A stretch of DNA of 28,629 bases from a virus (lineage: Duplodnaviria > Heunggongvirae > Uroviricota > Caudoviricetes). A program made the position numbers. Location of the stretch: the IMG/VR virus record IMGVR_UViG_2627853869_000005; one strand, written 5' to 3'. Below are positions 7,901-10,900 of this stretch, one piece after another. How positions within the stretch are numbered: position 1 is the stretch's first letter; each line of letters opens with the position of its first letter.

Positions 7901-10900
7901 TCATAACATGCTTGACAACTTAATAGGGGCACTCCCCCGCTAAAGTGTTGCCCGAAAACTGGTGGCAACATCCAGCTGCATTAGGTGCAACTGACAGTGA
8001 TATCGAAATCATCAAACGTCAGTGGGGTGCGTTTTACGGTACGGATCTGGAGTTGCAACTGCGCCGCCGAGGTATCGATACAATAGTGTTATGTGGGATC
8101 TCGACCAATATCGGTGTTGAATCCACCGCCCGCAATGCCTGGGAACTTGGCTTTAATCTGGTGATTGCCGAAGACGCCTGTAGTGCCGCCAGCGCCGAGC
8201 AACACAATAACAGCATTAATCATATCTACCCGCGCATCGCCCGTGTGCGTAGCGTGGAAGAGATCCTTCACGCGTTATGATTTACATCGGTCTACCGCAA
8301 TGGTCGCATCCTAAATGGGTGCGGTTGGGGATCACCAGCCTTGAAGAGTATGCCCGCCACTTTAACTGCGTGATACGGAATTTTTAAAAATCACTAAAGA
8401 ACGCCCAAGAGCATGTTTTTTATTTAGAAGAATCAAAGCGTTGTATTTCCATGTCATATAAAAATCGGCAAAGTTCATATGTAACAAAGTGTCCCAATCA
8501 TGCCCCAAAATGCCCCACAACAAATATTTTTGCCCCATGCATGCCCCAAAAAATCACTTTCCTTCACCCTTAATACTGTTTATCCATACAGTTAAAAATG
8601 ATACTGTATACAAACACAGTGTAGAGGGACTTTTATGCGTATTGAAATCTGCATAGCCAAAGAAAAAATGACTAAAATGCCAACCGGTGCTGTGGATGCG
8701 TTAAAGGAAGAATTAACCCGACGCATCAGTAAACGTTATGACGATGTAGAGGTGATCGTAAAAGCTACCAGCAACGATGGCCTTTCTGTTACGCGCACCG
8801 CCGATAAAGATTCAGCTAAAACTTTTGTTCAGGAAACTCTGAAAGATACCTGGGAGTCTGCTGACGAGTGGTTTGTTCACTAATTAGCACGTAAAATCGG
8901 TAACGGCTGGAAATCATTCAATACTCGCACTATCGGAAGTTCACCAGCCAGCCGCGGTACGTTCTTACATACGATGTACCGCTGTTCTCTTTACGATTTA
9001 TAGCTGTACTGGTGAATTATGAGCAATCTGAATCCATGCATGACGTGTGGTGCCTGTTGTGCATTTTCCGCGTCTCTTTTTACTGGGCAGAAGCTGACGA
9101 TGCTGGCGGAAAGGTTTCGGTCAGTCTCACTGAGCAAATATCTCCTTTTCATCGCTGTATGCGCGGCACCAATCAGAAAAATCCCCGATGTGGCGCTCTT
9201 GCCGGCCCCCCCGGAGAAAACGCATATTGCTCTGTTTACAAAAACCGTCCACATGCAGGGAATTCGCAATGTCCGGCGAAAATAGCATCGTAAATGAAGC
9301 ATGTAATCGCGCACGGGAAAAATATGGATTTCCAAAAATCTGAATATTCTCCGCCGTGCAAAAATGCGAACAACATCACTTCACTAATCAACCTGACATG
9401 GCATACTTAGCACGCTAACTATGATAACAAACTAATACCCTAAAACTCATGGTTCCGGGACTGGTCGTGGTCCCGTTTTTTTATTCAGCCAGCAGGCCAT
9501 CCGACAACATAACTGCGGATCGCCTTCAGGTCTGTCAGCGCCTCAACCTCGGCTTTCATCTGCAACTGCCGTGTATTAATCTCCACTCCCTTCGCAAACA
9601 TCGCCTGCTCTGTCGCTTCACTCAGTGCCATCCATGATGCTGCCGTCATTGGCACATCATTATTATCAGCATCCGTCCGGAAAAATTTCTCTGGCAACTT
9701 AAAACAATATCCTATATATCCGGCGTCTCCGGTATGTAGAACGTGAAGTTTTTAAAATTATTTATTTACCATTTAACTAATTTTTAGATCCTGGGGTACT
9801 CCCGTCTTTTTCATTGCCTCCACGAAAGCGGAACTAACAGAACCTGACCAGTAATACTGGAACCCACTAACAACGCCCTGATAAATCATGGTTTGTGTAG
9901 CACCACCTACGTTTACGGTGATGTTAACTGCTTTACCACCGGCTAAATAAACAGCAGCTGTCGGTGTAGAGTTCGTCAAAAAGTGAGAAAGTGTAACGAC
10001 AGCCCCTACCAGCCTCCCTGATCCGCAGCTTGCGGCGTTTGTAATTGTACCTTTACTTTTTTCTTCTAAAGGCCAGTCAGCGCCAACTGCGCCCCAGTTA
10101 TCAACCTTGTCAGAGGATTTCCATTTATAGTACTCAGTTGCAATTTTACAGCCCATAGTTCGCCCAACCATTTGGCTCATCATAAAAGGTTTACTCAGTC
10201 CCAGTTTGGTTCCGGCGGCTCCCATCCACTGCTCACCTGTTTCGCTCTTAGCCGAAGAGCCTACCCATCCCGATGTTACCCCCATCTCATCTCCCCCTTC
10301 TGAATGCGTGGGGTGAGTGTCACCCCACAATTTAAATTCAGTAGAAACCAGAAACTACAACAGCTGTCGTTTACTTCTCCCGGAGTTCTTTAATCTCATG
10401 ACGAAGTGTTTTAAAGCCCTCGACTAACAATGCAATTATGCCGTTGTAGTTAAGACGCAGACGTTTTTCACCAGATATAACGTCTGCGTCTTCAGTTACC
10501 AGTTCAGGCAATGCTTTTTGTGCATCCTGAGCAATTAAACCAACCGACGTTTGCCAACCGTCGGCAGAGTACTGTATCTCGTAAAGATAACCAGTAAGTG
10601 CCTCCAGACGATCTAACGCATTATCCAGTTTTACCAGATTTCGCTTGTTGCGTTTATCCGAACGGATCTGAATATCGTTAAATGAGCCGTTTCCGGTCAC
10701 CGTCAAATTGCCATTAATACCACCATTAAAAGTTTGTGCCTGAGTCCATGTATTGGCAGTAGTAAGCAGTTCTGTTCCTTGCCCGGGGGCTCCTGTGTCT
10801 CCCTTCGGTCCCTGTGGCCCCGCCGGACCTGCTGGACCTGCTACTCCCGGATCACCTTTATCGCCTTTCGGCCCCGGCGCACCTGCCGGACCTGCTGGTC

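Follow-up and report, generated by a model that had tools for sequence, protein, structure and literature searches.

A prophage dinI-like gene behind two predicted LexA operators at the end of a degraded lambdoid prophage

That dinI homologues of prophages are under LexA control has already been established by experiment in the Salmonella Gifsy prophages. The homologues of Gifsy-1, -2 and -3 possess a LexA box that is required for their response to mitomycin (PMC3121763; Lemire, Figueroa-Bossi and Bossi 2011), and they are induced 4.5–23-fold by nalidixic acid (PMC3121763; PMC8072944). The Gifsy LexA-controlled operons that are headed by a dinI homologue encode an antirepressor, non-polar deletions of dinI in these prophages had no significant effect on induction, and the phage protein Tum has a DinI-like half, with the antirepressor activity of PSP3 being located in the non-DinI half (PMC3121763). 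For the chromosomal protein of E. coli, an account of the work of Gao 2023 (PMC9945995) describes DinI as occupying the same elements of the RecA groove as LexA, UmuD and lambda CI. The module analyzed here is itself already known, as its gene is annotated in RefSeq and the record of the Stx1 phage VT1-Sakai (AP000400) has shown, since its deposition, a promoter and a ‘putative SOS box’ that is homologous to the proximal one of the two boxes described below. A literature search for expression or binding data on the DinI-like paralogue of E. coli and Shigella prophages returned only data on chromosomal dinI and speculation. SOS promoters with more than one operator, as those of lexA, recN and the colicin genes, are generally tied to tight repression and late induction. 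In Salmonella the lexA boxes are 21 bp apart and those of recN 18 and 22 bp (PMC8072944).

The locus lies in a 28.6-kb viral sequence, which as a whole we call the window, and the original prediction had placed it at 8576–8883, coordinates that proved to be exact. In our opinion it is highly probable that gene and flanking signals form a LexA-repressed, SOS-inducible moron, which a lambdoid prophage carries at its attachment-site end. In this unit a dinI paralogue would stand between a sigma-70 promoter with two LexA operators and a hairpin terminator, with these positions:

8570–8575, + strand: -35 hexamer, TTAATA in place of the TTGACA of nearly all relatives
8574–8593, + strand: predicted LexA operator 1 (distal), TACTGTTTATCCATACAGTT, occupying the promoter spacer
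8593–8599, + strand: -10 region, TAAAAAT, to be read as TAAAAA 17 nt or AAAAAT 18 nt from the -35
8602–8621, + strand: predicted LexA operator 2 (proximal), TACTGTATACAAACACAGTG, over the predicted transcription start
8623–8629, + strand: Shine-Dalgarno AGAGGGA, 5 nt upstream of the ATG, read from the sequence
8635–8883, + strand: dinI-like coding sequence, 82 aa plus stop, ATG start
8954–8992, + strand: probable intrinsic terminator, a 10-bp stem with a 9-nt loop followed by UGUUCUCUUU, from RNA folding

The two well-formed SOS boxes 12 bp apart, on which the prediction had been built, are indeed present and are the only pair of their kind, as the 28.6 kb of the window contain just two matches to CTGT-N8-ACAG, 8576–8591 and 8604–8619, with a gap of 12 nt between the two 16-mers corresponding to 28 bp from centre to centre. 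By chance 0.31 occurrences are expected in the window; at least two were found anywhere in 5 of 100 shuffles, and paired before a gene in none. Both boxes were scored with a heterology-index (HI) matrix made from 28 E. coli LexA operators that were not taken from a curated file, the rank order of which is in broad agreement with published HI values. With this matrix HI is about 4.5 for box 1 and 4.8 for box 2, in the range of strong operators such as those of sulA, dinI and recA. The next-best LexA-like site in the window has an HI of 10.9, and no site with an HI below 8 was obtained in 200 shuffles. As both boxes also agree with the LexA consensus at all critical positions, they are by sequence good operators, to which LexA would be expected to bind.

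The assignment of the gene to the DinI family is borne out by a match of its product to Pfam DinI (PF06183; E 1.1e-19, 70.9 bits against a cut-off of 24.2, profile positions 1–63 of 63) and by an end-to-end alignment with the E. coli DinI structures 1GHH/7YWA (E 3.7e-13, residues 1–81 against 1–79). Residues E67, W73, E74, A76, D77, W79 and F80 are invariant in an alignment with DinI and eight paralogues, and the acidic C-terminal helix motif WESADxWF, which is implicated in RecA binding, is retained. By analogy to E. coli DinI the protein, named ‘DinI-like family protein’ by RefSeq in O104:H4 (WP_001217553.1), probably binds RecA-ssDNA filaments and modulates their coprotease activity. The gene is under strong purifying selection, with a dN/dS of 0–0.1 against 19 close alleles (up to 13 synonymous differences and no non-synonymous one), and the protein is 100% identical to that of the viable phages mEp460 and SKA5. 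Its surroundings are an IS-riddled remnant of tail genes, in which the tail-fibre gene is frameshifted, IS66 has inserted and IS1 has caused a truncation, and no regulatory or lysis genes of the prophage remnant were found within the window. An intact gene in a decayed prophage had been claimed before and is what we observe.

The boxes overlap the promoter, again as anticipated. Box 1 fills the -35/-10 spacer of the sigma-70 promoter, the last two bases of the -35 hexamer being positions 1–2 of the box, and box 2 begins 3–4 nt past the -10, with transcription probably starting at about 8605–8607. The -10 is placed as in the promoter annotated in mEp460 and VT1-Sakai, and a purine-rich block at the Shine-Dalgarno position is kept in the aligned promoters of the relatives. 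A promoter scan of the window did not call the dinI-like promoter because TTAATA leaves only 8 of 12 matches, and it was recovered via its relatives; in mEp460 the scan gave TTGACA-18-AAAAAT with 10 of 12 matches at the homologous place, where GenBank also annotates a promoter. In our alignment of 14 promoters, comprising the window copy and 13 relatives from five genera, TTGACA is present in 13 with the window copy as the sole exception, and TTAATA is shared by just one of the 58 close relatives whose upstream regions were compared. With two substitutions in the -35 the window promoter may therefore be weakened, even when derepressed. All of this, together with the heavy degradation of the surrounding prophage, would also fit a silent relic, the -35 of which has decayed from TTGACA to TTAATA so that the gene is barely transcribed and is intact for lack of time. 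We regard such a relic as unlikely, if not negligibly so. The identity of the protein to that of viable phages and the dN/dS of at most 0.1 in the allele set argue against it, TTAATA keeps four of six consensus matches next to an unchanged -10, and box 1 gains from these two substitutions, as CACTGT becomes TACTGT and the HI improves from 5.6 to 4.5. Moreover, related yecE-type copies with the -35 variants TTGATA, TTAACA and TTGGCA have an intact gene.

Both boxes are found in 13 of the 20 loci of the 82-aa prophage subclade, distributed over Escherichia, Shigella, Trabulsiella, Mixta and Erwinia, and these 13 loci conserve the order TTGACA, CTG-N10-CAG, a TAAAAT-like element, the second box, Shine-Dalgarno and ATG. 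Across Enterobacterales one or more strong boxes centred at -23 to -30 are present in 73 of 80 DinI-family loci, and a single box is all that is present in 57 of the 80. As one box suffices there, box 2 alone might be the working operator also in the window, as for chromosomal and Gifsy dinI, and the distal palindrome a tolerated spacer. In line with this, the GenBank annotation of VT1-Sakai marks the proximal box alone, and the distal one, being weak in BP-4795 (HI 10.4, right half-site ACAA) as well as in the VT1-Sakai type (HI 9.8), is therefore dispensable in some lineages. For the window we nevertheless find a single working operator quite improbable, as the distal box scores 4.5 here against 4.8 for the proximal one. 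Furthermore, in all 14 promoters from five genera both boxes keep their CTG and CAG triplets and vary in their inner bases, ten of which differ in the distal box, a mark of selection for LexA contact beyond that for spacer length. Over the promoters of the 13 loci with both boxes the invariant columns are the -35, CTG, CAG, (C)TG and CAGT. The cooperative action of two LexA dimers, which was part of the original prediction, finds no support in these data, as a centre spacing of 28 bp in the window and of 24–28 bp among the relatives does not keep a fixed helical phase. Since the spacing varies in this way, it is better explained by promoter geometry than by dimer–dimer contact.

The hairpin of the probable terminator begins 70 nt 3' of the dinI-like stop and was missed by a simple terminator scan, which allows loops of up to 8 nt, because its loop has 9 nt. 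VT1-Sakai, mEp460 and two E. coli loci likewise have the hairpin and the U-tract; one pair of the stem is compensatory in this comparison, and stem and T-run are stronger in the mEp460 type. An Rfam scan gave no RNA family at the dinI-like locus and only a cobalamin riboswitch far off. The dinI-like gene is the terminal gene of the prophage beside the yecE' junction and converges on the tail-fibre genes, and the same terminal position by a host gene, converging on tail-fibre assembly genes, is seen in Pantoea and Mixta. Between 8884 and 9018 there is no ORF of at least 30 aa on the + strand. The ORF that comes next is YkgJ-like and frameshifted, a gene seldom found in phages. This ORF was considered as a common phage gene or as a counterpart of irsA and was rejected as both, with only three weak phage matches and a layout that is not that of Gifsy.

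These observations bear on the idea that the protein, or an operon headed by it, belongs to an antirepressor switch through which LexA would control prophage induction. The Gifsy operons and the DinI-like half of Tum are precedents (PMC3121763), and at a distant dual-box locus in Trabulsiella an ORF6N/P22_AR_C antirepressor-like gene follows 1 kb downstream. We consider such a switch very unlikely in the window, as a terminator and an interval devoid of + strand ORFs follow the gene, and the search for a Gifsy-like antirepressor ended with the hairpin and the YkgJ-like pseudogene. In addition, the unit is located at the tail-fibre/att end, in contrast to the Gifsy-2 layout downstream of the replication genes, so that neither an antirepressor directly downstream nor a location in the early region, the two marks of a Gifsy operon, is found. 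The location of the PSP3 activity and the lack of an induction effect of the Gifsy dinI deletions (PMC3121763) also argue against an antirepressor role of the DinI-like protein itself.

As a moron, which it had been called from the outset, the gene should have its own signals and travel independently, and it indeed has its own promoter and terminator and recurs in otherwise different phage contexts. The homology to phages with other integrases runs from 8566 and ends at 8959–8986, that to a S. flexneri locus stops at 8974, and the breakpoints of the cassette, including those of Shigella loci which continue into ipaH, are at 8566–8575 and 8959–8986, with the terminator as the downstream edge of the mobile module. 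At the junction the nearest matches are S. flexneri SFBU1023 and ‘E. coli’ ECMA0423, and more than 63% of the region 6000–28629 of the window is covered by no complete E. coli genome. Operators, gene and hairpin are present as a unit in about 97% of the complete E. coli genomes, which together contain roughly 11,000 copies and where a 601-bp cassette query matches at a median of two places. That the palindromes are Int, Xis or IHF sites of the nearby attachment site instead of LexA operators deserves hardly any credence. The yecE'/prophage junction at a distance of about 190 bp might point to this, as might TGCCCCA repeats, clustered about 25 bp off, that resemble integrase arm sites. The boxes, however, move with dinI rather than with att and int, in mEp460 they come after the stop codon of an integrase that is unrelated, and they agree with the LexA consensus at every critical position.

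For the LexA-repressed moron that we favour, the following sequence of events can be proposed. In the undamaged cell a LexA dimer on box 1, between -35 and -10, and a second one on box 2 at the transcription start would jointly stop binding and initiation by RNA polymerase. DNA damage would lead to RecA-stimulated self-cleavage of LexA, setting the promoter free for production of the 82-aa protein. Its acidic C-terminal helix, by homology to E. coli DinI, would then insert into the groove of the RecA-ssDNA filament, where the protein would make the filament more stable and be a competitor of other substrates that bind in the groove, among them UmuD, LexA and repressors of the CI type, with an added dosage of DinI in the SOS response as the result. 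Damage induction, as well as any effect on the SOS response or on prophage induction, we infer from these likenesses, and a tuning of prophage induction by this gene, as originally suggested, is conjecture.

What we add to the known module is modest: the distal LexA box is located exactly in the spacer and abuts a perfect TTGACA, a design that is shared by several enterobacterial genera, and the cassette, on which purifying selection is strong, persists in prophage remnants. This matters little beyond housekeeping. It could also be that selection at the level of the host retains the dinI cassette with its two operators after the death of the prophage, with extra, tightly repressed DinI that is made only under strong SOS filling the RecA groove and measurably delaying cleavage of UmuD and of repressors of the CI type, and with the distal operator setting a later threshold than that of chromosomal dinI; to this we would give a small chance. 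If true, it would mean lower SOS mutagenesis and less induction of co-resident prophages, including those encoding Stx. If prophage copies of DinI do alter SOS dynamics or the induction of Stx phages, this would have a bearing on antibiotic-triggered toxin release.

Among the known systems, VT1-Sakai (AP000400) with its H0001 (DinI) and mEp460 (NC_019716) with its ‘RecA filament binding protein DinI’ carry the same mobile module, their proteins being 95% and 100% identical, respectively, to that of the window. In both, the promoter is at the same place and the gene lies at the prophage end and converges on tail-fibre genes, and in VT1-Sakai a stub of the YkgJ-like ORF also follows downstream of dinI. 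The window copy differs from both in having TTAATA for TTGACA and in belonging to a remnant in yecE and not in yehV, and from VT1-Sakai in the strength of its boxes (HI 4.5 and 4.8 against 9.8 and 8.0, with only one of the latter being annotated). The dinI genes of Gifsy-1/2/3 are likewise prophage-borne members of the family directly behind a strong LexA box, but with one box overlapping the -10 (HI 2.4) instead of two, and with a 77-aa protein from another DinI subclade instead of one of 82 aa. They follow the replication genes (about 1.3 kb) and are co-transcribed with the antirepressor that triggers induction, whereas the window gene is located at the prophage end with no antirepressor downstream. 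LexA-controlled phage genes with DinI-like sequence are also found in coliphage 186, as tum, and in PSP3 and Fels-2, as a split tum. In P2-like phages, however, Tum is an antirepressor of 146 aa to which a DinI-like half is fused, and the window gene encodes a stand-alone DinI of 82 aa in a lambdoid context. Chromosomal dinI of E. coli shares the fold family, a full-length alignment with 49% identity, the acidic C-terminal helix and LexA control with the window paralogue, and it differs in its single operator, its core-genome location and its mid-protein residues. With lexA, recN and the colicin genes the window promoter has in common that it carries more than one LexA box; unlike the spacing in lexA and recN, however, that of the window boxes, which flank the -10 with 28 bp between their centres, follows the geometry of the promoter.

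The motif CTGT-N8-ACAG occurs at only two sites in the 28,629 bases of the window, 8576-8591 and 8604-8619, as found in a motif search of the whole window (chance level in the shuffled window: 0.31 sites on average). A gap of 12 nt separates the two 16-mers, whose centres are 28 bp from each other, and the layout read from the window is ...CCC TTAATA CTGTTTATCCATACAG T TAAAAAT GATA CTGTATACAAACACAG TGT AGAGGGA CTTTT ATG... The features of this cassette next to the two boxes are:

8570-8575, + strand, -35 hexamer, TTAATA in the window
8635-8883, + strand, dinI-like coding sequence of 82 aa, Pfam DinI PF06183, E 1e-19
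8954-8982, + strand, hairpin from RNA folding with a 10-bp stem and a 9-nt loop, followed by UGUUCUCUUU

We applied the Berg-von Hippel heterology index (HI, lower values meaning a better LexA operator) to all 20-mers of the window. The matrix was derived from a set of 28 E. coli LexA operators that did not come from a curated file; they reportedly stem from the compilations of Lewis 1994 and Fernandez de Henestrosa 2000. With this matrix the distal box 1 (8574-8593) scores 4.5 and the proximal box 2 (8602-8621) 4.8, both between sulA and recA, the next best 20-mer of the window has an HI of 10.9, and none of 200 shuffles of the window contained a site below 8. The ranking of known genes by the matrix broadly agrees with published HI values quoted in PMC11228462. 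The two well-formed SOS boxes 12 bp apart of the original prediction are thus confirmed with their coordinates, and the LexA matrix scoring it had proposed as a check gave no poor scores. The third-best site of the window, CACCGGCTAAATAAACAGCA at 9937-9956 inside a Gp38-like tail-fibre adhesin gene, is probably a chance occurrence.

The promoter can be read from the relatives. Most of 58 close IMG/VR relatives have a perfect TTGACA directly before box 1, followed by the 16-nt box plus one base, TAAAAAT and box 2, and at the homologous position of the viable phage mEp460 a promoter scan calls TTGACA-18-AAAAAT (10/12 matches) where the GenBank record also annotates a promoter. Because of this order and the promoter call and annotation in mEp460, box 1 fills the spacer between -35 and -10, and its first two bases are the CA that ends TTGACA. 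Box 2 starts 3-4 nt past the -10 and should cover the predicted start site, and the proposed overlap of the boxes with the likely promoter holds in this form. Among 14 aligned promoters 13 have TTGACA, the window copy with TTAATA being the exception. These two transitions leave the window promoter at 8/12 matches, where it is not called by the scan, and may weaken its -35; they also change CACTGT to TACTGT and bring box 1 from HI 5.6 to 4.5, which is a better operator. Other variants among the 58 relatives are TTGATA, TTAACA and TTGGCA, found on both yecE-type and mEp460-type upstream flanks.

Regarding the protein, the assignment to the DinI family held up, as the product not only matches PF06183 but also aligns over its full length with the E. 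coli DinI structures 1GHH and 7YWA (E 4e-13). It is 100% identical to the protein of the viable phages mEp460 and SKA5, and the C-terminal-helix residues E67, W73, E74, A76, D77, W79 and F80 are invariant in the alignment with E. coli DinI; we predict a functional protein. The coding sequence, found identically in 13 loci, is under strong purifying selection, with dN/dS of 0-0.1 against 19 other close alleles, some of which differ from it by 8-13 synonymous and 0 non-synonymous changes.

A DinI-alignment scan with one genome per species returned 80 loci, and 73 of them carry at least one strong LexA box centred 23-30 nt (occasionally further) before the ATG. One box is present in 57 loci, two in 16 and none in 7, six of the latter being from Yersinia, where the start codon is probably mis-set. 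Within the subclade of 82-aa prophage proteins (20 loci, 56-99% identity) two boxes at about -51 and -24 were found in 13 loci from Escherichia, Shigella, Trabulsiella, Mixta, Erwinia and one assembly labelled Chryseobacterium, which is probably contaminated. Across the 14 aligned promoters, invariance is limited to TT-A-A in the -35, CTG and CAG in box 1, TG and CAGT in box 2, and the ATG; the ten inner positions of either box and all flanking columns are variable. This pattern is the one that selection for LexA contacts at both sites would predict. The distal box is not universal, being weak in the VT1-Sakai type (HI 9.8) and in BP-4795 (HI 10.4, right half-site ACAA). In loci with two boxes the centres lie 24 to 28 bp apart, a spacing that tracks promoter geometry and not a fixed helical phase, and the "cooperative" LexA binding suggested originally therefore finds no support. 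For comparison, Salmonella boxes are spaced by 21 bp at lexA and by 18 and 22 bp at recN (PMC8072944). Enterobacterial-type dinI loci with LexA boxes also occur in assemblies labelled Chryseobacterium sp. 18061 (L087), Candidatus Saccharibacteria MAG (L091) and Vagococcus sp. WN89Y (L125), likely through contamination or mis-binning; the L087 protein and its Pantoea stewartii counterpart (L088) share ~99% identity, with differing nucleotide sequences.

Homology to phages with other integrases (mEp460, SKA5 and many Stx1/Stx2 phages) starts at 8566-8575, at the -35, and ends at 8959-8986, coinciding with the hairpin, and these boundaries mark the cassette as a moron. VT1-Sakai, mEp460 and two further E. 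coli loci share the hairpin and its U-tract; the comparison shows one compensatory pair, and stem and T-run are stronger in the mEp460 type. A 601-bp query around the cassette matched 5,256 of 5,426 complete E. coli genomes, with a per-genome median of 2 places. The dinI homologue of Pantoea and Mixta is likewise flanked on one side by a host core gene or the prophage edge and on the other by tail-fibre assembly genes that converge on it. No + strand ORF of at least 30 aa was found between the dinI stop and the YkgJ-like pseudogene at 9019. This frameshifted pseudogene of the YkgJ (cysteine-cluster) family, 9012-9293, closely follows the probable terminator hairpin; members of this family otherwise seldom occur in phage records (3 weak matches).

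The region shares 99.7% identity with E. coli O104:H4, for which RefSeq gives the order yecD, a truncated yecE stub, a 'DinI-like family protein' (WP_001217553.1), the frameshifted YkgJ-family gene and then, on the opposite strand, the tail-fibre, Lom, J, I, K, L, M and H genes. From this annotated order, a lambdoid prophage integrated in yecE ends with the dinI-like gene, which points inward. The window contains the following further elements:

6483-7931, IS110-family element interrupting yecD, transposase at 6710-7906
21893-24194, IS66 (TnpB and transposase) in the prophage tail region
25737-26240, IS1 transposase gene directly after the last tail genes
26476-27665, PocR/AraC-family regulator gene (pocR) and then a cobalamin riboswitch (RF00174, 103.5 bits), directly after IS1
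27807-28628, IS3-family element, transposase beyond pocR and the riboswitch

The tail region is fragmented and cut short by the IS66, IS1 and IS3-family elements, and the tail-fibre gene at 10371-11784 is split into two overlapping frames. An intact gene in a decayed prophage, as first described, is therefore what we see. No phage genes were identified in the window beyond IS1, nor any regulatory genes of the prophage within it. The position of pocR and the riboswitch right behind IS1, where the prophage remnant stops, suggests that an IS-mediated rearrangement joined the yecE region to a pdu/cob-type island. The IS110-family insertion is absent in O104:H4 and present at the same place in S. 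flexneri SFBU1023 and 'E. coli' ECMA0423, which are 98-99% identical over 6134-8974 including the insertion; complete E. coli genomes each cover at most 63% of window 6000-28629. A Shigella or EIEC-like strain is the probable origin of the window. In these two loci the dinI cassette is identical up to window 8974 and is followed, at their positions 3349-5100, by a 583-aa IpaH-like leucine-rich-repeat ORF (as read from the translation) in place of the tail-fibre genes. The cassette thus persists in two or more remnants with different rearrangements.

Between the yecE'/prophage junction and the dinI -35, + strand direct repeats (GTGTCCCAA, then four (A/T)TGCCCCA copies within 48 bp) occupy 8489-8548. 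The same set precedes dinI in VT1-Sakai (L165 1389-1420), downstream of the annotated att core. TGCCCCA is not enriched in the whole window (6 found, 5.7 expected), with four of the six in this cluster. The repeats probably serve as arm-type sites for integrase binding in a shared int/att family.

As a mechanism, LexA dimers on both boxes would occlude the promoter, RecA-stimulated LexA cleavage would derepress it, and the dinI-like protein would then bind in the groove of RecA-ssDNA filaments. According to PMC9945995, on Gao 2023, cryo-EM shows that E. coli DinI uses those elements of RecA that LexA, UmuD and lambda CI also use. The dinI of Stx phages has been speculated to limit induction (PMC8456039), and non-polar deletions of the homologues in the Salmonella Gifsy prophages had no significant effect on induction (PMC3121763).

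LexA control of dinI homologues has been established experimentally in Gifsy-1/2/3 (PMC3121763, PMC8072944), where the homologue heads an operon containing an antirepressor gene (PMC3121763). The window unit differs in its location and has no downstream antirepressor, and we therefore reject a Gifsy-type induction switch for it. Unlike the two-box design, the Gifsy-2 homologue has only one LexA box, which is very strong (HI 2.4) and lies over the -10. A Trabulsiella guamensis prophage (L090) carries a dinI-like gene with two LexA boxes and, 1 kb further downstream on that strand, an ORF6N/P22_AR_C antirepressor-like gene at 3748-4632, which could be a LexA-controlled antirepressor arrangement. 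The dinI homologue H0001 of the Stx1 phage VT1-Sakai belongs to the same module as the window unit; its GenBank record already annotates a 'putative SOS box' (the proximal one) and a 'putative promoter of H0001 and H0002', the latter being a YkgJ-like stub downstream of H0001. To the Gifsy work and this record our analysis adds the conserved distal operator in the spacer, the degenerate -35 of the window copy and the evidence for purifying selection.
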